IMG/VR virus record: IMGVR_UViG_3300045988_122987
DNA from: a virus
Length of the DNA: 42,285 nt
Direction: 5' to 3' (one strand)
Part shown: positions 1 to 39,736 of the stretch, piece by piece
Numbering within the stretch: the first letter of the stretch is position 1
Layout of the letters: the number at the start of each line of letters is the position of its first letter
Notes under the pieces: model-generated
What the model saw: only the letters and a program-made list of their open reading frames with translations
Told to the model about the DNA's origin: nothing
Databases searched by the model: none
Position numbers and translations under genes: made by a program

Positions 1-99
1 ACATAAGTGCAATATGAACGATTAGTATTTATGCCGCTTTGGTATCTATTGATATACTAAATTTATATCCGCTCGGCTGTGTTCGAGTCCGCGGCACCA
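1..99. repeat. Left copy of a 99-bp direct repeat, identical to 42187-42285. It is either an assembly overlap of a circular genome or a phage direct terminal repeat.
   Basis: Positions 1-99 match the last 99 bases of the window exactly. Position 100 (g) follows the repeat. The right copy sits immediately after a terminator. Confidence 0.9.
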
Positions 100-1582
100 G
101 ATATGCGCAAACATTTTGTGTAGAGAGTGTAACTTTTATCACAGTTCCAGTAACAGTTACATTAGTTACGAGGAGGTCTATCGCACGTTTGGCGTAGTCC
201 ATATTGTTCTTCACAAAAATTTCACTTTTAATAGTCGTCAAAAAGGCGACTATTTTTTTATTATCCAGACTTTCTACGGATTTCACAGAAGCTTCACAAA
301 TAGATTTATTGATTTCTCTCAGCTCCACCTTAATCTGGTTCAGCCGTTGGCGGTCAAACTCGTCTGCTTCGCCTTCTTCAAAAATTTTATAGATATTGTT
401 CAATTTCTTTTCGGCAGCGGCTTTACGTTTTGCAAGAGCTTCTTGTTCTGCAGCATGTCGGGATTCTTCTTCTTGGTAGCCTTTGGCAATGGCATCGGCT
501 ATCCTGCGCATACCGGACACAGTAAAGACAACGCGCTCTAATATCTGCATTACCCAGTGCTCTAATACTTCGGCACGGATCATGCGTTGCTGACACTTTG
601 AAGTAGGAGTCTGTTCTTTGCGCGTGCAGCCATAATAATAATAACGCTGGCGCACACGATGACCAACCATAGCACTTCCACACTCGCCGCAGAATACTTT
701 ACCGGAAAGCAGGTAATCATGTTTGGCTGTATATTTGGCGGCGTGGCAGCGGTTGCGTTCGCGTTTTGCTTGTACGATGAAGAAGTCTTCTTTGCTGATA
801 ATTGCTGGCAGGGCATCTTCGATAGAGATATAATCATCTGGCCTTTTTTGAGAGTGCATATTACGTTTCCCTTTACCTTTCGGAATTTTGTTGAATGTAT
901 ATGTGCCTATATATTTTTCGTTGCCGAGAATATCATACAGACTGTTTTTGCCGAACGGCTTGCCGCTTTTGGTGGTGAAGCCTTTGCTATCCAGCGCGCG
1001 GCAGATTTCAGCATACCCTTTGCCTGCAAGGTATAGCTCAAAAATAAGGCGCACAGCAGCAGCTTCGCTTTCATCAATAACATATTTTTTATCCACAATC
1101 TTATACCCAAGAGGTGGACAACCACCGTTAAAGAGTGCCTTGTAGGCGTTCTCGTTCAGCCCCTTCTTTGTTTCTTTGGACAGGTTGCGGGAATAATAAG
1201 CGGCCATACCAACCATAACAGTTTCCATCACCTGACCTTCGGGCGAATCGGTGTCGATAGGTTGGGCGGCGTATTCGTAGTTTATGCCCAGCCGCTCGAG
1301 CTTATCTTTAAATTTGAAATAGTTTAGCTCGTTCCTGGAATTGCGGTCAATCTTATGGAAGATGATAACATCAAATTTATCTTCCATGGCATCGGCCAGC
1401 ATCTGATTGTAAGCGTCACGCTTGGTAACATCGCGTCCGCTCTTTGCTTCATCAGCATAAGTATCGACAACGATGTAGCCTTTGTTTTTGGCGTAGGCCT
1501 TGCAGGCGCGGACCTGCGCGTCAATAGACTCTTCGCGCTGCATGTCGGAAGAGAAGCGCGCGTAGATAACTGCTCTTTGCAT
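29..1582 (-). CDS. int: Large serine recombinase (integrase), 517 aa.
   Basis: The N-terminal resolvase-type catalytic domain has the motif YARFSS, with the catalytic Ser in the Y-A-R-F-S-S context. A recombinase domain follows, then a zinc-ribbon segment (CGECGSAMVGH...YYYGCTRK) and a C-terminal coiled coil. The SD AAGGAG lies 9 nt upstream of the ATG at 1582 on the minus strand. Confidence 0.9.
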   Translation of the reverse strand: MQRAVIYARFSSDMQREESIDAQVRACKAYAKNKGYIVVDTYADEAKSGRDVTKRDAYNQMLADAMEDKFDVIIFHKIDRNSRNELNYFKFKDKLERLGINYEYAAQPIDTDSPEGQVMETVMVGMAAYYSRNLSKETKKGLNENAYKALFNGGCPPLGYKIVDKKYVIDESEAAAVRLIFELYLAGKGYAEICRALDSKGFTTKSGKPFGKNSLYDILGNEKYIGTYTFNKIPKGKGKRNMHSQKRPDDYISIEDALPAIISKEDFFIVQAKRERNRCHAAKYTAKHDYLLSGKVFCGECGSAMVGHRVRQRYYYYGCTRKEQTPTSKCQQRMIRAEVLEHWVMQILERVVFTVSGMRRIADAIAKGYQEEESRHAAEQEALAKRKAAAEKKLNNIYKIFEEGEADEFDRQRLNQIKVELREINKSICEASVKSVESLDNKKIVAFLTTIKSEIFVKNNMDYAKRAIDLLVTNVTVTGTVIKVTLSTQNVCAYLVPRTRTQPSGYKFSISIDTKAA

Positions 1583-1610
1583 AGAGTCATCTCCTTTTAA
1601 AATTATTGAG

Positions 1611-3215
1611 GTGTTTTGTATGGATTTTGTTATAATAACAGTGCTTTTAATATCTGTAATGGCAGCGTATAGCTATTGGAAAAAATCGAAAGAAAAAGAT
1701 AAGGATATAGCCAGGCTTATAGCTCAAAACAGTTCTTTGTATGACCAAGCGAATAAAAGCAAAAAACAATTAGAGCAAGAGAAGTTGAGGGTAATCAATG
1801 AGTATGGCAAGCTGAAAAGAGAGCTTGTCAGCCAATGTCAATTAGATAAGGCCTTATTGATTAGCGAACACAACCAAGCATTAGAAAATAATGAAAAAGA
1901 AAAAACAAAAGTAATAGATGAATATAGCCAGTTAAAAGCTAAGCTTACAAGTGACTATGAAGCTAAAAAGGCTAAGCTTATTTCCAAAAGTAATCAGTCA
2001 ATAAAAGATTACGAGATTAAAAAAGCAGATTTAATCAGAGATTATATTCAAACAAGAGATAATGTAATGCATGAATACCACAAGGCTCTGGAGGAATTTG
2101 AGCAAGAAAAGCAAGAGGCCATAGCAGAACGTAAAAAAGCTATTGATGATTGTCGCAAACATGAGGAACAGTTAAAAAGACAACATGATTTTAAAAATCA
2201 GGTGTTGAATGAACGCGAGAATCAACTGGCTGAAAGAGAAAAGCTAATGAAGCTGAAGGTAAAAAGCATACCGGTATTAGCCAAGTATTTTTCTGATTTA
2301 GAATTTCAGAAGGATAGCATCAGAGAAGCGTATTTGCTTCAGAAAGAGCGTCCTGCAGTAAAAGCGTCTGATGTTGTCAGTGAAATTCGCCGCGAAAAGC
2401 ACACATTAAATTTAAGGCTTAAAGAAGCAGAGTATCTAGTAAAGTATTATGAGCAAGCTGCTCCATGGCTTGCAGAAGCTGACGATGATTATATAGATCC
2501 GGAGTTAAATAAAACCGGCATCGAAGACTTTGACGAAAACAAAGATGCTGCCAGCTTCTGGCTTTCCAAAGATGAATTTACCCAGCTTACGAGTCAGGAA
2601 AAATATCAGTTAGCTTTAGAGCGATATAAAAAACGTGTTAAAACTAATGCTGAAATTGGACGTGACTATGAAAGATACGTCGGCTATCAATACGAAACCC
2701 AAGGATACGTTGTAGAGTATCGAGGCATAATAGATGGCTTTGAAGACAGAGGACGCGATCTGCTTTGCCATAAGGATGGCAAAACATTAGTTGTTCAATG
2801 TAAATATTGGTCTAAGAAAAAGACGATACACGAAAACCATATCAACCAGCTATTTGGTACAACCTTAAAATATTTTCTCGAACAGCATCCAAGGGCAACA
2901 TTCTATGATTTCTTTACTGCTTTAGAAAAACGGACAATAGCGCCGGTGCTTGTAACCTCAACGACATTATCCGAAACAGCTGCGGAGTTTGCTTCATCAC
3001 TCAATATAAGTGTTGTAGAAAATAAGAGCCTTGGCGATTACCCCATCATTAAATGCAACATCAATAAAACATCTGGCGAAAAGATTTATCATCTGCCATT
3101 TGACCAGCAATACGATAAAGTTAAAATCAGCGGCAAAGGCGAATGTTATGCTATGACTGTTGCAGAAGCAGAAGAAAAAGGTTTTCGCCGAGCTAAAAGA
3201 TGGCTAGGCGAATAG
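1611..3215 (+). CDS. Membrane-anchored coiled-coil protein with a C-terminal Mrr-type (Mrr_cat, PD-(D/E)xK) restriction-endonuclease-like domain, 534 aa. Candidate moron or defence/exclusion gene.
   Basis: The N-terminal hydrophobic helix is FVIITVLLISVMAAYSYW. It is followed by roughly 280 aa of heptad-like K/E-rich sequence. The C-terminal block YRGIIDGFEDRGRDLL...TLVVQCKYW...PVLVTSTTLSETAAEFA matches the Mrr_cat pattern (GxDGGID ... VQCKRY ... TTSxFTxxAxxFA). The gene is markedly AT-rich compared with its neighbours. The SD GAGGTG precedes the ATG. Confidence 0.7.
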   Translation: MFCMDFVIITVLLISVMAAYSYWKKSKEKDKDIARLIAQNSSLYDQANKSKKQLEQEKLRVINEYGKLKRELVSQCQLDKALLISEHNQALENNEKEKTKVIDEYSQLKAKLTSDYEAKKAKLISKSNQSIKDYEIKKADLIRDYIQTRDNVMHEYHKALEEFEQEKQEAIAERKKAIDDCRKHEEQLKRQHDFKNQVLNERENQLAEREKLMKLKVKSIPVLAKYFSDLEFQKDSIREAYLLQKERPAVKASDVVSEIRREKHTLNLRLKEAEYLVKYYEQAAPWLAEADDDYIDPELNKTGIEDFDENKDAASFWLSKDEFTQLTSQEKYQLALERYKKRVKTNAEIGRDYERYVGYQYETQGYVVEYRGIIDGFEDRGRDLLCHKDGKTLVVQCKYWSKKKTIHENHINQLFGTTLKYFLEQHPRATFYDFFTALEKRTIAPVLVTSTTLSETAAEFASSLNISVVENKSLGDYPIIKCNINKTSGEKIYHLPFDQQYDKVKISGKGECYAMTVAEAEEKGFRRAKRWLGE

Positions 3216-3235
3216 CTTGCTTGACTTTTGTACAC

Positions 3236-3286
3236 AAAAAGCAGTAACAGCTTGACTTCTAAAAGTAAAGTTGTTACTGCTTTTTT
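3236..3286. terminator. Bidirectional intrinsic terminator between the Mrr-like gene and the XRE gene.
   Basis: The stem is GCAGTAACA (3241-3249) paired with TGTTACTGC (3272-3280), flanked by an A-tract and a T-tract (AAAAA...TTTTTT). A nested inverted repeat CTTGACTT/AAGTCAAG is also present. Confidence 0.55.
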
Positions 3287-3307
3287 AGGTGAAAAGTCAA
3301 GTTCAGT

Positions 3308-3610
3308 TTACTCTGCAAGCGCACGTACTAACTGCAGTACTGCTTGCTGATTTTTTACGCTTAGTTTATTAAAGCTATTAACGATTTCGGGGGCCTCATC
3401 TGGACCCCAACCCACGATGTACGCAGGCGATACGCCGAAGACTTTGGCTAAAGTCTCTATTTTATCATATGGTATATTGAGTACCTTGCCCGTTTCATAT
3501 CGTTGATATAATGGTGTCTGTATACCGGTCATTCGGCTGACCTCTGGCTGGGTCATGTGATTTTTCTGACGCAGACGCTTTAATCTATCTCCGATCAGCA
3601 TCTTCACCAC
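3308..3610 (-). CDS. XRE-family HTH transcriptional regulator, 100 aa.
   Basis: The HTH motif is LKRLRQKNHMTQPEVSRMTGIQTPLYQRYETGK. On the minus strand the SD GGAGGTGGTGAAG lies directly upstream of the ATG. Confidence 0.8.
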   Translation of the reverse strand: MVKMLIGDRLKRLRQKNHMTQPEVSRMTGIQTPLYQRYETGKVLNIPYDKIETLAKVFGVSPAYIVGWGPDEAPEIVNSFNKLSVKNQQAVLQLVRALAE

Positions 3611-3627
3611 CTCCTTCTGTTGGCACT

Positions 3628-3656
3628 ATAATAACACTAAATGCAAATAAAATCAA
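3628..3656 (-). promoter_or_regulatory. Sigma70-like promoter for the 3308-3610 XRE gene, read on the minus strand as TTGATT-17-TATTAT.
   Basis: The -35 TTGATT is the reverse complement of 3651-3656. The -10 TATTAT is the reverse complement of 3628-3633. The spacer is 17 nt. The same TATAAT on the + strand (3627-3632) could serve a rightward transcript. Confidence 0.45.
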
Positions 3657-3751
3657 TTAAAATTTACAAATAGCGCAAATTTATGACACAAGATTCTGCT
3701 ACAATAAAAGTGTGATTTGAAGACGCGGACCTCATGGAAGGAGGACGCATC

Positions 3752-3850
3752 ATGCAGGAATTGATTTTAGCTGCCATCATCAAAATTGAAGACGAGCATA
3801 TATTGGAAGTTATATATGCCTTCATAACCGAACTTATATCAGATGAATAG
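3752..3850 (+). CDS. Small acidic ORF of 32 aa (MQELILAAIIKIEDEHILEVIYAFITELISDE), absent from the ORF track.
   Basis: A near-consensus SD GGAAGGAGG lies 7 nt upstream of the ATG. A GNRA-loop terminator follows at 3857-3888. Confidence 0.4.
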   Translation: MQELILAAIIKIEDEHILEVIYAFITELISDE

Positions 3851-3856
3851 CGGTGC

Positions 3857-3888
3857 AGCGGTAACGAAAGTTGCCGCTTATTTTTTTG
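3857..3888 (+). terminator. Intrinsic terminator on the + strand after the small ORF.
   Basis: The stem is AGCGGUAAC paired with GUUGCCGCU (9 bp, one G.U wobble) with a GAAA tetraloop, followed by UAUUUUUUUU. Confidence 0.6.
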
Positions 3889-3895
3889 CACAAGA

Positions 3896-3930
3896 AAAGC
3901 CCTGAGCATTAACGCTCAGGGCTTTTTCTT
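3896..3930. terminator. Bidirectional intrinsic terminator at the 3' end of the CI-like repressor gene.
   Basis: The stem is GCCCTGAGC (3899-3907) paired with GCTCAGGGC (3914-3922). It is flanked by AAAA on one side and TTTTT on the other. Confidence 0.7.
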
Positions 3931-4311
3931 TTACTCTTTTTTGTGTTCTTGATAAAGCTTGTCGACAAACTCTTCAAAAGCAGTTTTAAGTTCTGGTGGC
4001 AGTTTGAGATATTCCAGAACCAGACGTTTTGTGAAGTCATCGTCCGACTTGATAAGCCGTCCAACCTGGTGCGCCAGCTCAACATCCACATTAGTTTCCT
4101 GACGGAACATTTCGCCGCTTCCGGTACGCAACCACACTTCATTAACATTAAAAGCATTGCAAATGTCGAGAATAGTACGCTCAGGAATGTTCTTTTCCTT
4201 TTCGTAATCGGCTACAGTGTTTTGTGCACGATTAATTTTTTCTGCTAAGGCTGTTTGCGTTAGTCCTAGACGTTCGCGTAGCACCTTTATTCGCTCGTTT
4301 ATTTCAGCCAT
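3931..4311 (-). CDS. CI-like XRE-family repressor, 126 aa.
   Basis: The N-terminal HTH is IKVLRERLGLTQTALAEKINRAQNTVADYEKEKNIP. The gene is transcribed divergently from the early operon. The SD AGGTGA precedes the ATG on the minus strand. Confidence 0.8.
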   Translation of the reverse strand: MAEINERIKVLRERLGLTQTALAEKINRAQNTVADYEKEKNIPERTILDICNAFNVNEVWLRTGSGEMFRQETNVDVELAHQVGRLIKSDDDFTKRLVLEYLKLPPELKTAFEEFVDKLYQEHKKE

Positions 4312-4332
4312 ATAATCACCTCGCTTTATTCC

Positions 4333-4360
4333 ATTATAGCAGGAGAAAAGAAAAAAGCAA
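4333..4360 (-). promoter_or_regulatory. Leftward sigma70-like promoter for the repressor, TTGCTT-16-TATAAT on the minus strand.
   Basis: The -10 TATAAT is the reverse complement of 4333-4338. The -35 TTGCTT is the reverse complement of 4355-4360. Confidence 0.5.
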
Positions 4361-4365
4361 GAAAA

Positions 4366-4384
4366 TTTATCGAAAAAAGATAAA
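4366..4384. promoter_or_regulatory. Candidate operator: inverted repeat TTTATCG-aaaaaa-GATAAA lying between the divergent -35 elements.
   Basis: The palindrome is perfect (TTTATC/GATAAA). The half-site TTATCG recurs at 4418-4423 and its complement CGATAA at 4450-4455, flanking the rightward -10. Confidence 0.45.
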
Positions 4385-4389
4385 AAGCA

Positions 4390-4418
4390 TTGACGGTACG
4401 ATAACAGAAGAGTATAAT
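4390..4418 (+). promoter_or_regulatory. Rightward early promoter, TTGACG-17-TATAAT.
   Basis: The -35 TTGACG is at 4390-4395 and the -10 TATAAT at 4413-4418, with an exact 17-nt spacer. It sits upstream of the first early gene. Confidence 0.65.
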
Positions 4419-7329: not shown

Positions 7330-8688
7330 ATGAAAATGGCTGTAGTAAATATGCCGGTAGAATGTCTTATCCCGCATCCGCAGAATCCAAGAAAAGACCT
7401 GGGCAATCTGGAAGAACTGACAGCGAGCATTAAAGAGAATGGCATCTACCAGAACCTTACCGTAATCCCGGTAAACGAAGCTATACCGGGTGAAGAGCCC
7501 AAGTATATGGTGGTTATTGGCCACCGTCGCCTGGAAGCTGCGAAACGCGCCGGGCTGCAGGAAGTGCCGTGCGCTATCGTAAGAGGCATGACGGAAACGC
7601 GGCAGCTGCAGACTATGCTGTTAGAGAATATGCAGCGTAGCGACCTGACAGTTTATGAACAGGCTCAAGGCTTCCAGCAGCTTCTGGACTTTGGTATGGA
7701 TATCGAAGATATCTCCCAGCAGAGCGGCTTCAGTAAAAGCACTATCAGACGGCGCTTGGAAATCGCTAAGCTGGACCAGAACAAGCTGAAGGAGCTAAGC
7801 TCTACCCGCCAGCTTAGTCTGAAAGAGTTTGATGCACTAGCCAAAATTAAAAACTTAGAAGCCAGAAATGAAGCAATGGAGAAGATTGGCACAAATGATT
7901 TTGCTCTAGCAGTCACACGCGCCGTGGAGGAAGAAAAGCTTGATGCTGCAATGCCGGTATTCCTGGCAGACATGGAACGCCTTGGCATCAAGAAATTCCC
8001 GGATGGTGCCAATAAATACAGCAGCAAATATAGACGTATCGGCAATATTAATCTTTACCAGTACGAGGAAACAAAAGAAAAAATTCCCAAGAAAACAGCA
8101 GGGGTGTATTATGAGGCCAACTATCCGAGAAACGTAGAGTTTTACGTAAAGGAAACAAAAAAAGGCAAGGCTAGAGAAAAAAGCGCTAAGGAGATTGAAA
8201 AAGAAAAATGTATAAAGGAAGCATGGTTTAAAGTCGATGCTATGGCTGCAACGCATTATGAGCTGCGCAAAGCATTTATGGAAAACTTTAAAGCTACCAC
8301 TAAACAGCATGAGCTCGTGCTGATGGGAGCCTATAGCGTGGCGGTATTGCAGGGAGTTACGTACATGGGATTGGGCAGCGTAGACAAAGAAGCTGGAATA
8401 GATAATAAATACTTTGATCCCAAGCAAGACGAGAAAGCAGTCAAGCTGGCCTTCGATGGTTACTTTGATATCCAGCAATGCGCAAATGTTATCTACAAAT
8501 TGTTCGGTGACAGTGAAAAAGAAAATTATGCCAACAATAGCCGCTTTGGATATCCTACATATAAAATCAATCCAAGACTTGAGGCGCTGTATCATTGGCT
8601 CGTTGCTCTTGGCTATCAGATGAGCAGCGAAGAAAAGCTTCTGGCAACTGGCCAGCATGAAGTATTTCAGCAGATTAAAGGAGCTTAA
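7330..8688 (+). CDS. ParB-like nuclease (ParB/Spo0J N-terminal) domain protein, 452 aa.
   Basis: The N-terminal segment IPHPQNPRK...VVIGHRRLEAAKRAGLQEVPCAIV has the ParBc signature (GHRR ... P). The SD AAGGAG precedes the ATG. Confidence 0.7.
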   Translation: MKMAVVNMPVECLIPHPQNPRKDLGNLEELTASIKENGIYQNLTVIPVNEAIPGEEPKYMVVIGHRRLEAAKRAGLQEVPCAIVRGMTETRQLQTMLLENMQRSDLTVYEQAQGFQQLLDFGMDIEDISQQSGFSKSTIRRRLEIAKLDQNKLKELSSTRQLSLKEFDALAKIKNLEARNEAMEKIGTNDFALAVTRAVEEEKLDAAMPVFLADMERLGIKKFPDGANKYSSKYRRIGNINLYQYEETKEKIPKKTAGVYYEANYPRNVEFYVKETKKGKAREKSAKEIEKEKCIKEAWFKVDAMAATHYELRKAFMENFKATTKQHELVLMGAYSVAVLQGVTYMGLGSVDKEAGIDNKYFDPKQDEKAVKLAFDGYFDIQQCANVIYKLFGDSEKENYANNSRFGYPTYKINPRLEALYHWLVALGYQMSSEEKLLATGQHEVFQQIKGA

Positions 8689-11002: not shown

Positions 11003-11452
11003 TTGCTGGTAAAGCACTGGCAGCGCGTCGCAGAGACACGCTTTAAGTATCACAAAAAAATTCAGATGGCCGTGGATGAAGCACGTGCCTGCAGGCATCC
11101 GCATGGGCTGAAGGACGAGCTGAAGCCTAATCCTACCCAGCAGGACGCACTCAAGGGAATACTGCCGCTGAAAAAGGTTAGCGTATACATCGGACGTCGG
11201 AGCTATGAGCTTGTCATTGAGCAGCCGGAGGAGTGGCTGGCGGTGATAAGGGAGACGTATGCCTTATACAAAGACTCTCCTATTGGCCACGTCATGCACA
11301 AATACTATGACAACTACGAGGACAGGCACGTCCAGCCGGAGGTTATCAGCGGGCTGCAGGGAGTGAGCCGTCAGACGTTCTACGCCTGGCGCAATGAGTT
11401 TTTAAGTGACGCTGCTATTATTGCAGCGCAGCATGGAATAAAAAAATTTTAA
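11003..11452 (+). CDS. ArpU/RinA-like late transcriptional regulator, 149 aa, with a TTG start.
   Basis: The C-terminal sigma-region-4-like HTH is LQGVSRQTFYAWRNEFLSDAA. Its position directly upstream of terS is typical for this family. The SD AAGGGGGAA precedes the TTG. Confidence 0.5.
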   Translation: MLVKHWQRVAETRFKYHKKIQMAVDEARACRHPHGLKDELKPNPTQQDALKGILPLKKVSVYIGRRSYELVIEQPEEWLAVIRETYALYKDSPIGHVMHKYYDNYEDRHVQPEVISGLQGVSRQTFYAWRNEFLSDAAIIAAQHGIKKF

Positions 11453-11460
11453 GCATTGCC

Positions 11461-11501
11461 GTTTTGTACTTTACAAATCGGCACTTTTGACGTGGTAAAA
11501 T
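11461..11501 (+). promoter_or_regulatory. Late promoter element, copy 1: inverted repeat TTTGTA-CTT-TACAAA, then 9 nt after the CGGC motif, then extended -10 GTGGTAAAAT.
   Basis: The same architecture recurs at 22299-22341 and 34329-34371 with identical 9-nt spacing after the CGGC motif. The TGnTAAAAT extended -10 has no canonical -35 and sits upstream of terS. Confidence 0.6.
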
Positions 11502-11534
11502 AGTATTGTGCAAAATAGCAAGTAAAAACAAAGG

Positions 11535-11568
11535 CCCTGACGGAGCGTTCTGTCGGGGCTGTTTTTAT
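11535..11568 (+). terminator. Leader hairpin with U-tract between late promoter copy 1 and terS. Candidate antitermination or attenuation target.
   Basis: The stem is CCCUGACGG/CUGUCGGGG (two G.U wobbles) with a 7-nt loop, followed by UGUUUUUAU. Confidence 0.45.
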
Positions 11569-11596
11569 GTCAAAAAACAAAGGAGGTGAAGGCACT

Positions 11597-17502: not shown

Positions 17503-17898
17503 ATGGCTGTAATGATTGATGCAAAGCTTATTCTTTGTGAAAATGTCGATACTGCAGCGACTGTCACCAGTAAGGCGCTTGATATCGGCCACAACAAATC
17601 TTTGAGACCGCTCTATGTTGATGTTAAACTGACTAAGGGCGTAACTGCCGGCCGCGTAAAAAGCGTAGAGCTGCAGTCCAGCGCTGACGAAAGCTTCTCT
17701 GCTCCGATCACTGAGATGGTGGTGACTATCGGCAAAACCGCTGAGCAGCAGAAGCACGCCTGCCAGCTGGCGCAATTCTTCGCGTCTATCCAACCGCAGG
17801 GCCGTTATGTCCGCGTAAAAATCACCGGTGATACTACCGTTCCGGCAGGTGGCAAGATTTGGGCATATCTGTCCCCAGATATTCAGGTACCGGTATGA
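17503..17898 (+). CDS. Hypothetical structural protein, 131 aa.
   Basis: The SD AGGAGG precedes the ATG. It lies in the structural block. Confidence 0.55.
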   Translation: MAVMIDAKLILCENVDTAATVTSKALDIGHNKSLRPLYVDVKLTKGVTAGRVKSVELQSSADESFSAPITEMVVTIGKTAEQQKHACQLAQFFASIQPQGRYVRVKITGDTTVPAGGKIWAYLSPDIQVPV

Positions 17899-18209
17899 GA
17901 TACAAAGTAATCCGCACCTGCTATTGGCAACACAGACTTTGGGAAAAGGGCGAAAAGGTGGAGCTGGAGGGGAATGTACCGGAGCATTTCAAACCGCTCT
18001 ATAATCCAGCCGAAAAATTGTCCCTGAACAAAAATGCTGAAGAACCTTCGGACGAAGTATCTGGCGATATGGAAAACCCGGATATCATGCCTTCTTCTTT
18101 GGAAGAAATGAATGTTGGCCAGCTGCAGAAGCTGGCACGTGCAAGCGGCCTGGAACCGCCGAAGAATGCAAAAAAACAAGAATTGATTTCCGCTCTGCGC
18201 GGAGAATAA
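17895..18209 (+). CDS. Hypothetical protein of 104 aa with a C-terminal HeH/SAP-like (Rho-N-like) motif.
   Basis: It is ATGA-coupled to the upstream gene. The C-terminal motif is MNVGQLQKLARASGLEPPKNAKKQELISAL. Confidence 0.5.
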   Translation: MRYKVIRTCYWQHRLWEKGEKVELEGNVPEHFKPLYNPAEKLSLNKNAEEPSDEVSGDMENPDIMPSSLEEMNVGQLQKLARASGLEPPKNAKKQELISALRGE

Positions 18210-18213
18210 CATC

Positions 18214-18243
18214 GGGCCGGAGCTTATTCCGGCCTTTTGTTTT
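18214..18243 (+). terminator. Strong intrinsic terminator.
   Basis: The stem is GGCCGGA-gcttat-TCCGGCC, followed by TTTTGTTTT. Confidence 0.75.
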
Positions 18244-18254
18244 AGGAGGAAACC

Positions 18255-18845
18255 ATGAACAACATTGAAATCTGCAACCTTGCGCTTGGCCGTATCGGCG
18301 TAGACGAAATCAACCGCATGGATGAGGCAAGCCAGCCTGCGAGAATCTGTACACGTTATTTCAATTTTACCCGTCAGAACGTATTGCGCCGCTTTCCTTG
18401 GACGTTCGCAACAAAACGTGTGCAGCTGGCACTGCTTAATGAAACGGCACCTGATTATAAATACGTCTATCAATATCCTTCTGATGCTCTGGCCATACGC
18501 CTTATGTACAATGATAGCTTTGTTGGCCTGCCTAAGGATAACTACTTCCGCATTATGAACGGTAACGGCGGACGCAAGATATACAGTAATATCTCTAACG
18601 CCTACGTGGAATATACTGCAGACGTAAAGGACAGCGAAACATTCGACAGCCAATTCATTGAAGCCTTCAGCTGGAAGCTGGCGGCGGAGATGGCATTCGC
18701 TTTGACCGGTAATATGAATCTTGCGACAAATGCTATCCAGGCATACAATGCTTACTTTACGGAAGCAGCTGGCGAGGATGCTGCAGAAGACAATCAGGAA
18801 GAAGCTGTACAGGATAGACTGGCCAACGCCAGATGGGAGGGCTGA
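18255..18845 (+). CDS. Tail tubular protein A, T7 gp11-like, 196 aa.
   Basis: The length is the same as T7 gp11. The N-terminal region NLALGRIG...ARICTRYFNFTRQNVLRRFPWTF aligns by eye with T7 ...ILASIGE...ARRILNKINRQIQSRGWTF. Confidence 0.6.
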   Translation: MNNIEICNLALGRIGVDEINRMDEASQPARICTRYFNFTRQNVLRRFPWTFATKRVQLALLNETAPDYKYVYQYPSDALAIRLMYNDSFVGLPKDNYFRIMNGNGGRKIYSNISNAYVEYTADVKDSETFDSQFIEAFSWKLAAEMAFALTGNMNLATNAIQAYNAYFTEAAGEDAAEDNQEEAVQDRLANARWEG

Positions 18846-22293: not shown

Positions 22294-22298
22294 AAATG

Positions 22299-22341
22299 TC
22301 ATTTTGTACTTTACAAATCGGCAAAGGACGTGTGGTAAAAT
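22299..22341 (+). promoter_or_regulatory. Late promoter element, copy 2.
   Basis: GTCATTTTGTACTTTACAAATCGGC-9 nt-GTGGTAAAAT. It differs from copy 1 only in the 9-nt spacer. It begins directly after the gp14-like stop codon. Confidence 0.6.
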
Positions 22342-22396
22342 GATAGTGCGGAAGGGAAGCCATCCTCCCATTTTCATCATACTCTAAAAATTAGCA

Positions 22397-22426
22397 ACGT
22401 AGAAAGCATCTGAGGCTAAGCCTTGG
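22397..22426 (+). terminator. Leader hairpin with U-tract downstream of late promoter copy 2.
   Basis: The stem is GCAUCUGAGGC/GCCUUGGGUGC (11 bp including three G.U wobbles) with a UAA loop, followed by UUUUUGCG. Confidence 0.4.
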
Positions 22427-22459
22427 GTGCTTTTTGCGTATATAGGAAAGGAGCAGAAT

Positions 22460-24562
22460 ATGGCAGTAATTGATGTTTACGAGAACCAGGCAAAGCTAGG
22501 TACGCCTACAAGCCAGACGAGCGGTGTGCATCCTGATATGGGCGGGCAGATGGCGCTGGCAAGGGCAAATGCAAATCTTACCAATACGATGGTAGAGGGA
22601 GGACAGAAGCTCTATGAGCAAATAGCCATTGCGGACGTGATGAAGGCTAACAATGATTACAATATGCAGATGAGCAGGCTGCAGAATGAGCTGCTGCAGA
22701 ACAAGGAAGAAAATGCCAGGGATAACCTTACCAAGTACGAAAAAGGGCGCAAGAAGATTATCAATGGCATTATGCAAAAAGGACCGTCTACGTTGCGCGG
22801 CGTTCTGGGAAGCAAAGCCTTTTACAATACTATTGAGCGTGACTGGACCGGCCAGCGTGCCCAGATGGAACGTTATACCATGGGTGAGATGGAGAAGTAC
22901 CAGGATACGCAGCTTAACAATCAATACAAATTAGCTTTGAAGGACGTAGCTGTAAACTGGCACAACAATAATGATCTGGACGCTGTTATGCGCCGCGGCG
23001 ATTTTATGACTGCAGCAAGGTATGCCAATTATGGCCAGGAAAAGATTACTGAAGCAAGCAACAAATGGAAGGCTGCGGTAGCAGAGACAGCAGCGCAGGC
23101 TGCTATCAATTCAGACAGCAGCGAAGGATGGACGCGTGGCGGTGAGATACTGCAGGCCTACGGTTATCTTATGGACCCGCAGAAACGTATCCAATACGAT
23201 AAGATTATCAGCGCGAGGGAGAAAAGCAATAATCAGCTTAATACCTTTGCCGGCATCTATGCCAAGTATGGCAGTGATATAAACGGCGGTGTGCAGGCGC
23301 TCTTGTCTACGCAGACCGGTACGGCAGATATCGCCAAAGGTTTGGCATTTGCACAGGGAGAGGAAGGCAAGGCTTGGGGCAGCAATCAGTGCGCTAACTT
23401 TGTGAAAAAATATATTCAGACGGCTGGCGGTGATTATGACATCACCAGCAGCTTGGCTGATGGTACCTACCTTAACGCAGAACGTAAAGGGCTGACGTTT
23501 AATGACCGTAACCAATTAAGGGACGGAGATATCGTCTATTGGCAGGTAGATGGCAGCAAGTACGCTACGAGCGACAACCCGGATGATGTGCATTCTGACA
23601 CTAAGGCCTATAAGGGTATTACCCATGTCGGTATATACAATGCCAAGACCGGCAAGGTTATCCAGAGTGGTGAGCATGGAGTGAGTGAGCTGGCGCTGGA
23701 TGCTGCCGGATATCATACGGTAGGCTACAGCCATATCGGCGGCAGAGCTATGGACGCAACTGAGCGCGAAGAATTAAAAAAAGGTTATATGCAGTACGCG
23801 CTGCAGCAGGTGCAGCAGAAGCGTACAAGCACTAACCTTATGGTGGAAAGAGCTTCGGATGAAATGTTTGCTGCCTACAATAATGGCGTACGTGACCCGG
23901 CGTATTTTGAAAACATGGCCAAACAGATAGCAGGCAACGATTATAGCGCTTATAATACTTTGCACGCTGTAGCAAAGAGCTTTACATCTCCGGGTGTACA
24001 CAAATTAACTGTAGGTGAGGCTTTGGAAATAGAGGATGCCATAGACAAGGGCGGACTGTCGCAGGATGAGCTGATCCAGAAGTTGTCTGATGCAGGCTGC
24101 AGCACGGAAACTATTATGAAATACGTGCATATGAATAAGCAGGCGGCGAAAGCTGCAGCTAGGGGCGAAGGCAAGGCATCATTTGACTGGGACAGCGTTA
24201 TGGAAGCCTTTTACAGTAAGATGGGCGGAAGAAACAAGGTGCCGGAAGCGTGGCGTCCGGGATTGAAGCGGTACGCCAAAAGAGCAATAAACGAATACAT
24301 AGCTAAAGAAAACCGCACGCCTACAGTAGACTGGGTGATGGATATCATGGAACAGGGACTGGTTAAGGGTGTCGGCGGCGTTACGGTAGAAGGTGAGCAC
24401 TTCTGGAACAGTGATATATCATACAATATGGCACAACTTGGCAACCATGATATCTATCATATCAGTAATGCAGATGATGGTTACGTCAATGTATGGTTTT
24501 ATGGCAATGCTCAGCCGGTGCGCATGAGCAAGGCAGCGTTTAAGCAGACGATGGGAGAGTAA
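22460..24562 (+). CDS. Internal virion/ejection protein with a CHAP peptidoglycan-hydrolase domain, 700 aa, in the T7 gp15 position. The start is adjusted from 22427.
   Basis: The CHAP-like catalytic motifs are GSNQCANFV (Cys codon at 23390-23392) and GITHVGIY (His codon at 23624-23626). The SD GGAAAGGAG precedes the ATG at 22460. Confidence 0.6.
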   Translation: MAVIDVYENQAKLGTPTSQTSGVHPDMGGQMALARANANLTNTMVEGGQKLYEQIAIADVMKANNDYNMQMSRLQNELLQNKEENARDNLTKYEKGRKKIINGIMQKGPSTLRGVLGSKAFYNTIERDWTGQRAQMERYTMGEMEKYQDTQLNNQYKLALKDVAVNWHNNNDLDAVMRRGDFMTAARYANYGQEKITEASNKWKAAVAETAAQAAINSDSSEGWTRGGEILQAYGYLMDPQKRIQYDKIISAREKSNNQLNTFAGIYAKYGSDINGGVQALLSTQTGTADIAKGLAFAQGEEGKAWGSNQCANFVKKYIQTAGGDYDITSSLADGTYLNAERKGLTFNDRNQLRDGDIVYWQVDGSKYATSDNPDDVHSDTKAYKGITHVGIYNAKTGKVIQSGEHGVSELALDAAGYHTVGYSHIGGRAMDATEREELKKGYMQYALQQVQQKRTSTNLMVERASDEMFAAYNNGVRDPAYFENMAKQIAGNDYSAYNTLHAVAKSFTSPGVHKLTVGEALEIEDAIDKGGLSQDELIQKLSDAGCSTETIMKYVHMNKQAAKAAARGEGKASFDWDSVMEAFYSKMGGRNKVPEAWRPGLKRYAKRAINEYIAKENRTPTVDWVMDIMEQGLVKGVGGVTVEGEHFWNSDISYNMAQLGNHDIYHISNADDGYVNVWFYGNAQPVRMSKAAFKQTMGE

Positions 24563-24566
24563 CATT

Positions 24567-27500
24567 ATGGGAACTTTTAATTTCAGTAATATGCAAGGTG
24601 GCCAACAGCAGGAAACTCAGAACATTCCGCGTGAATTTCGTCCTGCTGTTGAGCAGGCGAAAACGGAACCGGTCGGCTCTTACGGTAACAACAAAACAGG
24701 CTTCTGGGACGAGGTGAAGAATTTTTTCTCCGGTGCAGATGTTGATACCAGTGCCGGCTTTATTGATGAAACAGGAACATGGAACAATGGCACTAAACAG
24801 GAGCTTGCTAAATACTATCCTACACAAAAGAGTGCGGAAGAACTCGAAAAGGACAGATTAGGCTCTTTGTGGGACAGAGCGTATAAAAAATATCATTACA
24901 GCAAAGACGATGTACTGCTTGAAGCAAAGAAAATCAGCGCGGCCACAAACATCCCTGAAAATGCTATCCTGGCTAACGCTGATAATCTGGCCAACGCACG
25001 CAATGTATATAATTATCAGCAGAAGGCTATGGACCCGCAGGAAGTGTTTAAGGCCTACCCTGAGCTGAGCGAGCTGGCCAAGCTGAGTGATACCGACGCT
25101 GCTATTGCTCTGCATAACTTAAAGAACGTGCGCCAGACTCAGGGCATTATTGAAGCAGCTAAGACCGGCTGGGAGCTTGATAACCTGATGAGTGAGCGCG
25201 GCCGTATGGGCAACGGCAAAGAGCTGACGGATGCCGACATTGCACGTTTGGGAGAAATTGAAAAAGCACAGAAAAATTCTAAGGAACTGCCGGGACTTTT
25301 TGAGGACCCGATGAGTGCTATTGTAGGCGGCACAGTGCAGAGTGGCAAGATGATGCTGCGTAATGCTCTTAATGGCCAGAAGATGGGCGTATATGGCGCT
25401 GGCTTCGGCGCGCTTCTCGGCGGTATTGCCGGCGGCGGTGCAACGCTGGGTGCCGGTACTGCTGCAGGCGCGACCGCAGGTGCCAAGATTGGTTATAGTG
25501 TCGGCAGCCGTATCGGTATGGCGCAGGATATGTATGACGAAATCGCCGGCAACAACTACCTTGATTATAAAGGCTATAAGGATAAGCAGGGCAGGCAGCT
25601 GCTGACAGATAACCAGGCGCGCAGCTATGCTGCTGTAGCAGCAGCACTGGAAACCGGCATTGAATTTGCTAACGCAGATAAAATCCTGAACGTCATCAAA
25701 GGCGGTGCAGGTGCGCAGAGCATCAAAGAGATTATCAGCAGTGCCAAAGACAGCACGGAGCTGCAGAGCCTGCTTGCCGCATATCTGCGTGACAGTGCCA
25801 AGAACATCGGAACAGTGGCCATCTCTGAGAGCGCGGAAGAAGGCGTGCAGGAGATGAGCAACAGAATTATTTCTGATATTGCTGCAGCAAACAATCCCGG
25901 CGGTGATATCCCGACATATACGGCAAAGGACGTTATCGTTGGCGGCCTAGAAGCAAGCTGGCAGGCATTGCCTGCGTCTATTGGCTTTGGCGCTGGCGCA
26001 CATGGAGCAAGCACTGTATCGTTTATGCGTCGTGCATCCGCGGCGCTGCAGCTGAAAAGTGAAGAGCAGAAAGCTAACCTGCGTGATGCTAACGGCATAT
26101 CTATGCTGAGAAGTCTTGCTGAGGATATCAAAAATAATGCTTTGTTTAAAAAAGCTCCGGAAGTATATAACGAGGTACTGAATAATCAGCTCAAAGGCAC
26201 GGAGCTGGAAACTATTAACATAGATACAGAGTACGTTCTTAATCAGCAGGGCGGCTATGAGCTTTTGAAATCTGCAGCAAAGGCAGCAGGCATAGGCGAA
26301 CAGTATCTTAAAGACATCATCGATACTAAGGCAGACTTGAAAATCAGTACAGCAGATTATGTATCTAAGCTGCTGCCGACTGAAATCGGTGCTCATCTGG
26401 AAGACTACATCACATTCAGCGATATCAGCGAATGCCTGGCACGCAACAGAGAATATGCCGGCAGGATGCGCCGCGAGATGGACCGCATATTGGCATATGA
26501 GAACCGCCAGCGTGAAGATGCTTTGAATACCTACCTTGACAATAACTTCCATACTCCGGAAACCCGTGAGATAGCAGAGGCAGTATTGCGCCGCTTCCCG
26601 GATAATCCTAAGGAAGGCGTAAAGGAAATCAGAAAATCGCTGCAGGCCAAGATTGACGAGCCGCTTAATCAGATTATCGAAGAGCTGGAAAAGGGTATGG
26701 GTAACGGCGTAGCTGTAGTAGAAATCCCGGAATATGATAATCAGATGCGTGGCCGTGGTATCAAGGTAAGCAATAATGACCCTTGGTATCAACGCTACTA
26801 TAAAGAGAATAAGCATAAGCCCTCTAAGATGGAGCTGCGTGAGCTGGCGCGTGAGATTTGGACCGGCCACAACGAGTATGGACTCTTTGGCTGGGAAAAC
26901 CGCACTCCGGAAGATAACCAATGGTATGAGAATAACAAGGCATCCATGGAAGCAACGGAAGAAGCCATCCGCAGATTGGATGCGCTGACGCCTGCTCTGG
27001 AAGAAATAGATCCGGGCGAACTCTCTATTACTGAAGGCCTGAGCGAAGAAGGCTTTGAGGTATATCGTAAGCTGCGTGGCAAGCTGGAAGGCGCTGAAAG
27101 CAAAGAAGTGCGGCAGGCAGCACAGAAGAGGGCTATCCTTGCCGCACGAATGGCAGACCGTATGGCTGAGCTGCATAGACAGGTTGGCCATACTAAATAC
27201 ACTGCGCTTGATTATGCGCGTAGTATTGGGCTTATCAGAAGTGAAAGTGAAGCTGCGGAGCAGAAGTTTAATCAGGCCGCTATGCGTAAGGAAAATAAGC
27301 GTTATGTATTAAATGAAGATGGTAACGTCGATTGGGGAAATGTCAATGAATTTGTTGCCGATGATGGTACAACAATAAAAAAAGCACCCGTAAGGATGCA
27401 GATTGGATATCAGGTTGGCGCCGGTGATGCTGGAGCAGGTTATATTCATATAAAGAATAGACATACTGGATTTATAGAAGGGAAAGGATATAAGAATGTA

Positions 27501-30500
27501 AGTGATATTGTATATGATGTTTTGGAAAATGCAGATTTTGCTGTCAAATCTATATCTGCAGATGGACGGGAAAGGATAGCTTTAATAAGAGATTTAACTC
27601 CACATACAAGCATATTATTAGCTCTTGATTATACTGAGGAGGGCAATGATAGCTATTACACTATAGTTAGCATTATGCCGCAGTCAAAGAAGCAAACAAA
27701 AGAAGCAAAAGAAAAAGCATTATCTTTTGATGGGAGCGTTCGCCCATCGCCCGCTACCGGCAGCGGTGCCTTTTTCACTCCAACCGAAACAAAGGCCGGA
27801 ATCGAAGGAGGTTCGTTCGCTGGCAAAGATAATGCTTTTGATACTGTAAGTTTATCAGATGCTGACCAGTATGTCAATGAGTACACATACGACCAGAAAG
27901 CATGGCATGGCACGCCTTACAATTTTGAAAGGTTTGATATTGGCAAAATCGGCGATGGCGTTGGTGACCAGGTACATGGCTGGGGCCTGTACTTTGCTAA
28001 GGATAGAAAAATATCAGAGGCATACAAGGAAGTGCTGGGGGCTGACGCTGGCGCAGTAATTGTAGATGGGGTTACGTACAAAATTGATGAGGAGGGAGAT
28101 TGGGCAACAGCAGCAGGACAGAAGCTCATTGACAATGATCCGTTAGAATTTGTACTGGATACGTTTGACGCAATGACCGGAAACAAGAATAAGGAAAGGG
28201 CAATAAAAAGCTTAAAGGAAAGAATTGCTGGAACCAAAAGAACGGCTAATACAGAAAGCTATATTGCTAAACTAGAAGAAGCGATAAACATTATTGAAAA
28301 AGCTGACGTGAAGTACGAAAATACTTCACGCCTGCTGAAAGTGGAGGTTCCAGAAAACGATGTATTGCTAGACGAACAAAAGACTTTCATTAATCAGAAC
28401 AAAAATGTACAAGCACTTTTGAAAAATACTATAGAATCTTTGGATGATGCGCAGTCAATGAAGTTCTGGGAAAATCTGCTGAACTTTAAATTAAGAGCTT
28501 TTGATAATGCTGGCAAGGTTCAGTTTAAGATTGATGGCTTCAATAAATTAGCAGATGGCATTGGTAAGATTTTAGAGAGCAATTCTAATACATTTGGCTA
28601 TAGAACGCTTGCAAGAAGCTTGGAAAGATACGGATATAGCAAAGAAGAAATCGAAAAGCTAAAGTCAGATGGCGAATATCGTAATCAGGAACAACAGAAG
28701 CTCAGAAGTCAGGCTGCTGCTTTAGAAGAAGAATTAGAGCGTGCTAAAGCAGAAGATGCTGCTGCAAAAGAGGAGGTTATCAATCAGGCAAAAGCTGATA
28801 TTTCCGGTACTTTGGGGGGCATGTTTTCCGGCAACAAGATTTACGATGCTCTGGCGAAGGCTATGGGCGAAGAGGATTATAATTGGCGTGGCGCGTCTGA
28901 GCTGCTTAATGAGCACGGAATTAAAGGCATAGCTTACGAAGGTATGAAAGATGGCCGCTGCTTTGTCGTCTTCGATGATAAAGCCGTAGATATCATAGAG
29001 CGCTACAACCAATCTGCAGGCGAACGTGCTATGACGGCCAACATGGAGAAGCTGAAGGAAGCAAAAGAAATGCTGGCCAAAGATGCGGATATGGAAACCA
29101 TCTACAAAAAGACCGGCTGGCATCGTGGCGCTGATGGTAAATGGCGTTTTGAGATACCGGATAATTTGGATGAGATAGATGCTGCTAAATTTCCGGAAGA
29201 AGGATATGCTATACCGTTAGGAGAGATATATAATAATCCTAAACTGTATGAAGCTTATCCGTGGCTAGCTGACGTCATGGTTCAGTCTGAAGCTATGGAA
29301 GAGCAGACCTTGGGAGTAGCTGCTGGTGAAGGCTACATTGGCATAAACAGCAATCTGCTAGGAGACGGCATCAAGCAGGAGATAACCATAAACGGCATAA
29401 AGTATAAACGCATAGTAAGCAAGGATGGGGCTAAGGCCGGTAAGTTCTTTTCTCATGGTGATGAGTTCGTAGAGTATGCGCTTAATCATGGTATTAAAAA
29501 CAATACGTTTGACAAACAGGCCGCAGTGAATAGTTTGAAGGAGCTGATACAAGAAAAAGAATCTGTTATAGAAAAACTTAAAAGCAAAAATAATAATGGG
29601 CAGTTTAATAAAGGCATATTGGACAGACAAAAAGAATTAAACAAGATAAGAGGAGCGGCAGAGTTTGTTGGCAGAGCGGATATTGATTTTAATGAAGTCA
29701 AAAAAGCTGACAGAGATGTAGCAGCAGCTCACAAGAATTTAGCTGAAACTCTCATCCATGAAATCCAGCATATCATCCAGAATGCAGAAGGCTTTGCTGG
29801 CGGCGGTACTCCGGCCAGAGTCAATGAACAGATGAAGCGTCAGCTGCAGAAGTACGATGAAGAAATAGAACGCCTACATCCAAAAGGCAAAGAATATGTT
29901 ACGGCTATGCTCGAATATGACATAGCTGACTTTGAACATGACACCGGTGAAATTTCCGATGAGGATTTTACTGATATCAAAAATAAGGTTAAAGAGCTGG
30001 AAGACCAGATACCTGAAGAAAAAGTAAAGCGCCTGCAGGAAATCAAGGAGCTGCAGACAGATTTGCAATGGCAAGCTGAAGATGAAAACTCTGGCGATTA
30101 TGAAAAATACTTCCGTCTGCATGGAGAGCAGGAATCCAGAGTAGCATCAATGAAAGCACGGCTCTATACCATGGGTGCAAGCCAGGAAAGAATTGATAAC
30201 GAAGTGCTGAACGCTATCGATAATCCTATCATTGTATTTGGCGGCAGAAGCTACAGCATGGACTCTGATCAGCGCGGCTTATGGCAGCTCAAAGGCCAGA
30301 CTGCCTTTAAAACTACCGGCGAGAAGGTTATTTCTCTGTTTAAGGCTGCAGACCAGTCGACATTTATGCATGAGATGGCTCATATCTATCTGCACGATAT
30401 GCTGGCGCTGGCAGAATTACCGAATGCTCCGAAGCAGCTGCTGGATGACGTGGCCACGATTAACCGGTGGGCTGCATGGAACGATACGCAATTTGTCAAA

Positions 30501-34328: not shown

Positions 34329-34371
34329 TCATTTTGTACTTTACAAAACGGCCTGAAAGCCGTGGTAAAAT
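34329..34371 (+). promoter_or_regulatory. Late promoter element, copy 3.
   Basis: GTCATTTTGTACTTTACAAAACGGC-9 nt-GTGGTAAAAT. It begins immediately after the stop of the giant gene. Confidence 0.6.
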
Positions 34372-34394
34372 ATTATTGTCAATAAGTATGTAAA

Positions 34395-34426
34395 AAGCCC
34401 TGGCTGATGCCGGGGCTTTTGCTTTA
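34395..34426 (+). terminator. Leader hairpin with U-tract downstream of late promoter copy 3.
   Basis: The stem is AGCCCUGGC-UGAU-GCCGGGGCU, followed by UUUGCUUUAU. Confidence 0.5.
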
Positions 34427-34442
34427 TGGAAAGGAGCAGAAG

Positions 34443-39622: not shown

Positions 39623-39655
39623 AGCCGTCCCTTTGGGGGCGGCTTTTTGCTTTCT
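39623..39655 (+). terminator. Strong intrinsic terminator.
   Basis: The stem is AGCCGTCCC-TTTG-GGGGCGGCT (9 bp, one wobble), followed by TTTTTGCTTTCT. Confidence 0.75.
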
Positions 39656-39736
39656 AAAATAGGGAATGTATAGGGAATATCAAGGGAACATTTTCTCTCC
39701 GCTACCTTATAATAAAACTATAAGGAGTGAGCGGCT

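Follow-up and report, generated by a model that had tools for sequence, protein, structure and literature searches.

How does a temperate phage switch on three separate late gene blocks that are all preceded by the same element? This question is raised by the IMG/VR virus record IMGVR_UViG_3300045988_122987, a stretch of 42,285 nucleotides (nt) that we refer to, in its whole length, as the window. A preliminary description, made from the letters and the translated open reading frames (ORFs), pointed to an element recurring three times on the + strand and interpreted it as a late promoter followed by a leader terminator. We conclude that the window is a temperate podovirus, with Phascolarctobacterium (Negativicutes) as its likely host, and that the three elements are copies of one late-control cassette. 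The cassettes are very probably late promoters that are controlled by a regulator and carry a functional leader terminator. To the narrower claim that they work as Q-like antitermination cassettes, possibly with activation in addition as in GafYZ (PMC11150451), we give roughly even chances.

The pattern TTTTGTACTTTACAAAWCGGC-N9-GTGGTAAAAT, 40 nt in length, has exactly three matches on the + strand of the window (11462-11501, 22302-22341 and 34332-34371). All three were free of mismatches in a search allowing up to three, and the pattern was not found in 100 dinucleotide shuffles of the window, where none was expected by chance. The three copies after stop codons, each with exactly nine variable nucleotides inside, are thus as the preliminary description had them. 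The preceding ORFs end at 11452, 22293 and 34328, and the gap from the stop codon to the element is 4-10 nt. The block behind cassette 1 comprises terS (Terminase_2), terL and the genes for the portal, the capsid, the nozzle and a T7 gp14-like protein. Cassette 2 precedes the genes for a gp15-like protein of 711 amino acids (aa) and a polyvalent protein of 3253 aa, while cassette 3 precedes those for a tail fibre with a collar domain, an endolysin-like protein and small membrane proteins. The CHAP label previously given to the protein after copy 2 falls away, as the 711-aa protein has neither a CHAP nor any other Pfam match.

Each copy contains a dyad and an extended -10 element, located as follows.

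11458-11482, + strand: cassette 1 dyad, GCCGTTTTGTA-CTT-TACAAATCGGC, 10 of 11 arm positions complementary, centre at 11470 (about -38)
22298-22322, + strand: cassette 2 dyad, GTCATTTTGTA-CTT-TACAAATCGGC, 8 of 11 arm positions complementary, centre at 22310
34328-34352, + strand: cassette 3 dyad, GTCATTTTGTA-CTT-TACAAAACGGC, 9 of 11 arm positions complementary, centre at 34340
11493-11501, + strand: cassette 1 extended -10, TGGTAAAAT, hexamer at 11496-11501, predicted start at the G of 11508
22333-22341, + strand: cassette 2 extended -10, TGGTAAAAT
34363-34371, + strand: cassette 3 extended -10, TGGTAAAAT
11504-11509, + strand: second -10-like hexamer of cassette 1, TATTGT, 2 nt after the -10 (about -4 to +2)

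The inverted repeat TTTGTA-CTT-TACAAA reported earlier is present, but its extent needs correction: the true dyad covers 25 base pairs (bp), and the block that had been noted separately as '[T/A]CGGC' is therefore its outer right arm. The left outer arm is weaker in copies 2 and 3 (GTCA), and the dyad of cassette 1 is followed by ACTTTTG. When positions -12 to -7 are assigned to TAAAAT, the dyad, which spans about -50 to -26, has its centre near -38, and its right half-site TACAAA occupies exactly the place of a -35 hexamer, with an 18-nt spacer to the -10. The lack of a -35 element holds as described, since this TACAAA, with 3 of 6 positions, is the best hexamer that can be read from the sequence at a spacing of 17-18 nt. 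An alternative -35 for copy 1, TTGACG at 11487 combined with CAAAAT, was rejected because the other copies do not have it. The anatomy of an extended -10 (TGnTAAAAT) without a -35 and with a dyad in front was seen in all three copies. The activator dependence that had been read into this anatomy is unsupported; a TGn-extended -10 can act alone.

A second -10-like hexamer follows in each copy, namely TATTGT, TAGTGC and TATTGT (within 11502-11509, 22342-22349 and 34372-34379). Its start-to-start distance from the -10 is 8 bp, in contrast to 12 bp in lambda. In the cassettes tabulated below, no consistent -10-like element was found farther downstream than this hexamer. The rarity of the palindrome is not significant by itself (11 such palindromes against 5.7 in shuffles), and the signal of the element lies in its repetition and conservation. 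The palindrome is followed by a T-run (ACTTTTG or GTTTTGG) only in cassette 1, as seen in the window (11458-11489) and in the relatives L085, L087, L158 and L160. With an RNA fold of -12 kcal/mol, the palindrome of cassette 1 may additionally be a weak terminator of the early operon. As a general account of the element, a hairpin or terminator formed by the palindrome in RNA was rejected, being plausible for copy 1 only; copies 2 and 3 fold otherwise.

Behind every promoter lies a hairpin with a U-run and then a Shine-Dalgarno (SD) sequence and a start codon, so that this part of the preliminary description applies to three of three copies. The terminators, and one further hairpin inside the first late operon, are as follows.

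11533-11567, + strand: cassette 1 leader terminator, 12-bp GC-rich stem, GCGT loop, GTTTTTAT tail
22397-22439, + strand: cassette 2 leader terminator, 20-bp stem including an A-tract/U-tract, T-run at 22431-22435
34393-34425, + strand: cassette 3 leader terminator, AAAAGCCCTGGC-TGAT-GCCGGGGCTTTT followed by GCTTT, 12-bp stem
18214-18235, + strand (scoring on the minus strand too): internal terminator-like hairpin, GGGCCGGAGCTTATTCCGGCCT plus TTTGTTTTAG, 9 pairs of which 6 are GC, tail TTTGTTTTAG

The cassettes have the GC-rich stem-loop and the U-run of intrinsic terminators, and the leaders, terminators included, are 65-112 nt long. The whole-leader folds of cassettes 1, 2 and 3 reach -30.5 kcal/mol (z -4.0), -41.6 kcal/mol (z -4.4) and -25.4 kcal/mol (z -3.8), respectively. 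In cassette 1 the SD sequence lies at 11580-11588 and the ATG of terS at 11597; in cassette 2 the SD sequence (22446-22454) precedes the ATG at 22460 of the gene for the gp15-like internal virion protein; and in cassette 3 the SD sequence (34428-34436) precedes the ATG of the tail fibre gene at 34443. Copies 2 and 3 have GGAAAGGAGCAGAA[T/G]ATG in common. Since the U-run and the SD sequence of the cassettes lie only 10-25 nt apart, there is no room for another promoter, and late-gene expression needs read-through of the hairpin. Likewise, the hairpin at 18214-18235 is located between two structural genes of the first late operon (ORFs 17859-18209 and 18255-18845), and late transcription must therefore pass it too. 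The hairpin of cassette 1 showed compensatory changes in 5 of 14 predicted pairs among 11 variants, four of them in the 10-pair terminator stem, and such changes of the stem were already present among close relatives.

Attenuation through alternative RNA structures, the other option raised in the preliminary description, found no support. We detected no RNA motif common to the three leaders beyond the terminator, and no Rfam family reached the threshold in the window. A mechanism in which a protein acts on DNA and polymerase is favoured on these grounds. In the leader of cassette 2 (22348-22464; also in L113 and L114), the minimum-energy fold pairs the 5' part with the SD/AUG of the gp15-like gene across the terminator, which could reflect translational control or chance.

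The 20-nt core of the element was found at 76 loci in 32 IMG/VR contigs, 16 of which carried three copies and none more. One contig of a metagenome-assembled genome of Phascolarctobacterium succinatutens also carried it three times, and Phascolarctobacterium is therefore the likely host. Single copies of the exact 20-mer without a -10 were found in two Runella genomes and taken as chance matches; by our own estimate, about two matches are expected by chance in 596 Gb. No close relatives were found among GenBank phages, either by DNA or by the protein encoded directly upstream of cassette 1 (see below). More distant genomes were reached through homologues of that protein, of the gp14-like protein and of the capsid, while the comparison of cassette 3 concerns close relatives, as single-protein scans with terL and with the N-terminus of the tail fibre reached only those.

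We tabulated 17 cassettes of at least nine sequence types from Negativicutes prophages and phage contigs, with capsid identity down to about 55%. The parts of the cassette, their order and their spacing are conserved across these diverged relatives: a site, a TGn-extended -10, a second hexamer containing TA, a hairpin with a U-run and an SD sequence follow one another in 17 of 17. The claimed order of promoter, terminator and SD sequence therefore extends from the three copies to every cassette of a relative that was examined. TGn together with TAWAAT, TATGAT or TATACT was present in all 17, and the seventh base downstream, the predicted +1, was a purine in 16 of 16. The TA lying 3-4 nt behind the -10 hexamer was invariant in the 16 cassettes tabulated for it, usually as TAnnnT. 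The preliminary description had named hairpins upstream of the start, and absence of the element from relatives, as observations that would speak against it. The only plausible start lies upstream of the hairpins, and relatives carry the cassette of copy 1.

The sequence of the site differs between lineages.

TTTGTA-CTT-TACAAA: window, L085, L087 and L158
AATGTA-AAT-TACATT: L121
AAAATGT-AATAC-ACATTTT: copy 1 of L293 and L296
AAAAGTT-GCA-AACTTTT: L291
TGCAA-AAAGTCTTGAACAAA-TTGCA, outer arms paired: L082

In all lineages, the distance from the centre of the dyad to the first base of the -10 hexamer is 26 nt, and the GT-N5-AC core is kept. Relatives retain a perfect palindrome of 12+3+12 or 11+3+11, and where one outer arm has changed, the other has changed with it (CGGC/GCCG, TTGGC/GCCAA and TTGAC/GTCAA). 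A site whose sequence changes while its symmetry and its phase to the -10 stay constant is as expected of a dimeric DNA-binding protein on a promoter. Of this symmetry, only the GT/AC core is left in the cassette that precedes the gp15-like gene in L293 and L296, their second. A scan of viral contigs for an alternative palindrome, AAATGTAAATTACATTT, returned almost only unrelated AT-rich matches.

That the element is conserved in three copies, as previously stated, is true in part. Cassette 1 recurs in relatives, but copy 2 is lineage-specific, and the genes that flank it in the window are adjacent in distant relatives: the gp14-like and gp15-like genes adjoin each other without a cassette in L119/120, L123-133, L292, L294 and L295. 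In L293 (15727-17346) and L296 (15775-17026), genes have been inserted at the gp14/gp15 junction, of which one lies on the opposite strand and another encodes a pRha-domain regulator, and the inserts are followed by a cassette with the site of its own lineage, AAAAGTAATACACAAAT. The junction appears to be an insertion hotspot. Before the tail fibre gene of L036 (IMGVR_UViG_3300045988_080403) we found a chimera, in which the flanks are those of copy 3 while the 9-nt spacer, the leader and the terminator stem are of the copy 1 type, joined to the SD region of copies 2 and 3. The chimera indicates recombination or gene conversion between cassettes within one genome, and the cassettes are interchangeable in so far as the position of copy 3 can hold the spacer and leader of copy 1.

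Which protein reads the site? The gene next to cassette 1 is the following.

11003-11452, + strand: gene for a 149-aa protein, TTG start, SD sequence GGAAAGGGGGA, ending 5 nt before the dyad of cassette 1

The label 'ArpU-like' that this protein had received cannot be kept: at E<=1, no match was found in Pfam, PHROG or NCBIfam, including the models of ArpU (TIGR01637) and RinA (TIGR01636). Its nomination as a candidate regulator can be kept, and it is now the best candidate, given its sigma-region-4-like fold and its slot before cassette 1. The family comprises 94 clusters that match at E<=1e-3 among 1.84 billion representatives, nearly all of 140-160 aa, in which P75, E76, W78 and a C-terminal G-(I/V)-S-R-x-T-(F/Y)-Y are conserved. 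Its members gave only scattered marginal matches to helix-turn-helix (HTH) models, with one of 47 matching DUF1492 marginally (0.0095). Sequence searches revealed no membership of the protein or its family in a Q protein family, and sequence-profile searches of the family against PDB matched no solved structure. The fold of the 149-aa protein includes a sigma-region-4-like C-terminal domain, with many sigma-4 domains among the fold matches. Foldseek against viral models retrieved uncharacterised phage "transcriptional regulators" and, more weakly, Sigma70_r4 and DUF1492 (LtrB) proteins. As Q21, too, is sigmaR4-like according to its published description, which uses 2H27 as reference as well (bioRxiv 10.1101/651190), the fold cannot separate an activator from an antiterminator.

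Homologues of 145-151 aa (54%, 35% and 28% identity) are encoded directly before cassette 1 in every lineage bearing the dyad; the gene stands right upstream of the late promoter in the window, L082, L085, L087, L158, L291, L293 and L296, and right after RusA in some relatives. The best comparative evidence came from a prophage of Selenomonas noxia that shares the structural module. There, a RinA-like/DUF722 protein takes the slot, and three GTTTTACTTCC-like direct repeats of 11 nt with an 11-nt period stand in place of the dyad, while the extended -10, the second hexamer and the terminator stay. Since the regulator family and the type of operator are swapped together, we infer that the protein in the slot is the factor that reads the site. 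When the 149-aa protein was aligned with the RinA-like protein by hhalign, the probability was 60%, over the HTH domain only.

The published Q cassette consists of the Q gene, PR', a pause element, a terminator and the late genes (bioRxiv 10.1101/651190). The lambda Q-like reading offered in the preliminary description fits the gene order here, which is (RusA), regulator, promoter, terminator and late genes. Under this reading, the 149-aa protein would bind the dyad, probably as a dimer, and the TGn-extended -10 would serve the primary sigma factor of the host. A polymerase starting at the cassette together with the protein would then pass the leader terminator, the hairpin at 18214 and the terminators of the downstream cassettes in the manner of lambda Q, while one that comes from the early operon and lacks the factor would stop at the terminator. 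The protein may also boost initiation, as the right half-site sits at the usual place of sigma region 4. The placement of a promoter before a terminator in every cassette implies either that the polymerase is made resistant to terminators or that the terminators are weak, and Q-like logic explains the internal hairpin at 18214-18235 as well. As a tentative extension, the sigma-4-like proteins of 145-151 aa might represent a new, structurally minimal family of processive antiterminators that load at the promoter, in phages of diderm Firmicutes. They would use a palindrome at the -35 place of an extended -10 promoter lacking a -35, in effect replace sigma region 4 at initiation and travel with the polymerase without a canonical sigma-dependent pause; Ltr-type late activators of Gram-positive phages may then work alike.

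Several observations weigh against Q-like antitermination. No pause element was seen in the lambda-type register (+1 to +6), and the conserved hexamer lies at about -4 to +2. Known Q sites are not 25-bp palindromes, those of Q21 being direct repeats (bioRxiv 10.1101/651190), and the family searches found no sequence relationship to any Q family. If antitermination from cassette 1 were processive, cassettes 2 and 3 would not be needed, and more distant relatives do lack copy 2. A dyad over the -35 with a good -10 is equally a classic layout for class II activation. Finally, the start site, the efficiency of the terminators and the binding of the regulator to DNA enter the argument as predictions.

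The 149-aa protein could instead be an activator only; this is the chief alternative, which we regard as possible but on balance unlikely. On this account it would act on the dyad as a class II activator, like RinA/ArpU of the Ltr superfamily, LuxR or Mu C/Mor, and recruit the host polymerase without modifying it; the hairpins would be partial terminators that keep early read-through out of the late genes and tune how strongly these are expressed. The dyad centred near -38, the good -10 without a -35, the sigma-4/HTH-like fold, the position of the regulator in the Ltr slot before terS (PMC3753634) and the substitution by a RinA-like protein in a related prophage all agree with this account, and three promoters are easier to understand if each block initiates separately. 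However, the terminator follows the promoter in 17 of 17 cassettes and would halt activated and read-through transcripts equally, whereas in characterised Ltr systems it comes after the regulator gene and ahead of the promoter (PMC3753634). The stems are also long and GC-rich with U-runs, and a TGn-extended -10 may need no activator. If the dyad were an operator of constitutive extended -10 promoters, bound for example by the ParB-like protein (7330-8688) acting in the manner of KorB or by a lysogeny repressor, a dimer over about -50 to -26 would occlude polymerase and so silence the late genes; the ParB-like HTH protein is encoded in the window, and TGn-extended -10 promoters can work without a -35. 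We consider this repressor account improbable. The type of dyad follows the 149-aa family, the obligatory leader terminator would be left unexplained, and binding by a ParB/KorB-like protein in particular is disfavoured because no such gene is among those listed for the early regions of the dyad-bearing L291, L293 and L296. The cassettes might also be chiefly genes for three short RNAs (about 40-95 nt) made from constitutive promoters in lysogens and serving functions of their own, like StxS from PR' of a Shiga-toxin phage (PMC7547250), a role that is compatible with Q-like antitermination. A promoter followed by a terminator does define a short transcript, but the leaders share only the terminator, drift between relatives and have no Rfam match, so that a chiefly small-RNA function has little probability. 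A hairpin promoter of the N4 type for a virion RNA polymerase (6-bp stem, 3-nt loop) was rejected, as the dyad is phased to a sigma-type extended -10 and lies before late genes. No polymerase domain was found in the 3253-aa virion protein by Pfam (LPD23 and a weak ART-PolyVal match only), in a check that was not exhaustive.

The other factor proposed in the preliminary description was the small sigma-r4-like protein of 79 aa (ORF 39381-39620), which might act at the cassettes as an activator or as a Q-like antiterminator. It is a bare sigma-region-4/GerE-like HTH with a Sigma70_r4_2 match (1e-8), and sub-threshold matches to Phage_antitermQ (23 against 26 bits) and to a PHROG Q-like family speak for such a role. 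Its gene is the last of the late block, lying behind cassette 3 and after a membrane ORF of about 47 aa, with a strong terminator behind it (39623-39644); in relatives, it is always at the right end of the prophage before variable cargo. The protein would thus be made only once late transcription runs. Downstream of the gene, three AGGGAA(Y) direct repeats with an 11-nt period (39661-39688) lead to a TATAAT at 39708-39713, the last repeat being at the -35 position, and to the ORF 39737-40117. The pair pattern AGGGAA-N(4-7)-AGGGAA has two matches there against 0.03 expected by chance. Three or four such repeats were present in four of the six genomes with the 79-aa gene, including L007, L036 (four repeats) and L320 but not L062 and L319, which have other cargo. 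The last repeat contains GGAAC, which we take to be the -35 motif of region 4 of extracytoplasmic function sigma factors. On the sequence, the repeats are probably the target of the 79-aa protein itself. As the last late gene with its own repeat-bearing promoter downstream, the 79-aa gene makes a poor candidate for the factor at the cassettes, and we hold that role to be very improbable. Downstream of the homologue in L319 (1416-3334), we noticed an AAA_21 ATPase and a 268-aa protein, which look like a defence-type pair at the prophage end.

Elsewhere in the window, the 3253-aa polyvalent virion protein (24567-34328) occupies the position of T7 gp16 and bears an LPD23 domain and a weak match to an ADP-ribosyltransferase (ART-PolyVal). 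Its versions in relatives have LPD3 and LPD22 domains and range from at least 1,579 up to 3,431 aa. The lysogeny end (29-4418) encodes a serine recombinase (29-1582, minus strand), a protein with an Mrr-like restriction endonuclease domain (1611-3215) and two CI/Cro-type HTH proteins on the minus strand (3308-3610 and 3931-4311), and a near-consensus early promoter, TTGACG-17-TATAAT, is found at 4390-4418.

Late-gene switches are well understood in a few model phages only. Here, comparison alone defines a complete, compact switch, made up of a regulator gene, a 25-bp operator, a promoter and a terminator, for uncultured prophages that are common in the human gut. Diverged pairs of cognate operator and regulator could be used as orthogonal parts when anaerobic gut bacteria are engineered. 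Should the regulator be an antiterminator, Q-type control would reach a new protein family and hosts of the Firmicutes lineage, and the action of Ltr-type regulators merits re-examination. If it is an activator only, the system is a routine member of the late-activator class with an odd placement of the terminator.

The cassettes belong to a known kind, the late-gene switches of the Q or Ltr type. New features are the family of the regulator, the 25-bp dyad that takes the -35 place in an extended -10 promoter lacking a -35, the leader terminator as an obligatory part in a phage of the Firmicutes lineage and the number of cassettes, which is up to three in a genome. The lambdoid Q cassettes (Q-lambda, Q21 and Q82) likewise have the regulator gene right upstream, a position reached after RusA in some of the relatives found here, and, ahead of the first late gene, a promoter with a protein site followed by an intrinsic terminator, so that late genes are expressed by read-through; the sigmaR4-like fold of the regulator is as reported for Q21. 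On the other hand, we found no sequence homology to the Q families, no -35 and no pause element in the +1 to +6 register, and the 25-bp palindrome lies over the -35, whereas Q sites lie between the -35 and the -10 or are direct repeats. Furthermore, there are three cassettes per genome in a phage of a Negativicute host and the first late gene is terS, in contrast to the lysis genes behind Q.

The Ltr superfamily (RinA, ArpU, LtrA/Sigma70_r4, LtrB/DUF1492 and LtrC), whose proteins control packaging, morphogenesis and lysis genes, is similar in that a gene for a sigma-4-like HTH protein of about 140-150 aa lies directly before terS (PMC3753634). The Ltr terminator precedes the promoter and the sites are direct repeats (PMC3753634), unlike the dyad and the terminator after the promoter described here. 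A RinA-like protein occupies the same slot in the related Selenomonas prophage, but the 149-aa protein itself has no match to the models of ArpU, RinA or DUF1492.

Class II activators with dyad sites act at -35-less promoters in other systems, LuxR at the lux box and Mu C and Mor at late and middle promoters being examples. They share with the cassettes an inverted repeat over the -35, a good -10 with a poor -35 and the use of one site by several late promoters. They differ in the centre of the site, which is at -42 to -43.5 rather than near -38, and in not being known to have an obligatory leader terminator; in addition, the 149-aa protein has no match to the Mor/C or GerE families.

Promoter-loaded antiterminators are also represented by AlpA of Pseudomonas (PMC7969949) and by GafZ with GafY of the Caulobacter gene transfer agent cluster (PMC11150451). 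The protein families, the hosts and the architectures of the sites are unrelated to those of the cassettes, but the principle is alike: a small DNA-binding factor at a site in the promoter region enables the bypass of terminators by polymerase, and the case of the gene transfer agent combines activation with antitermination.

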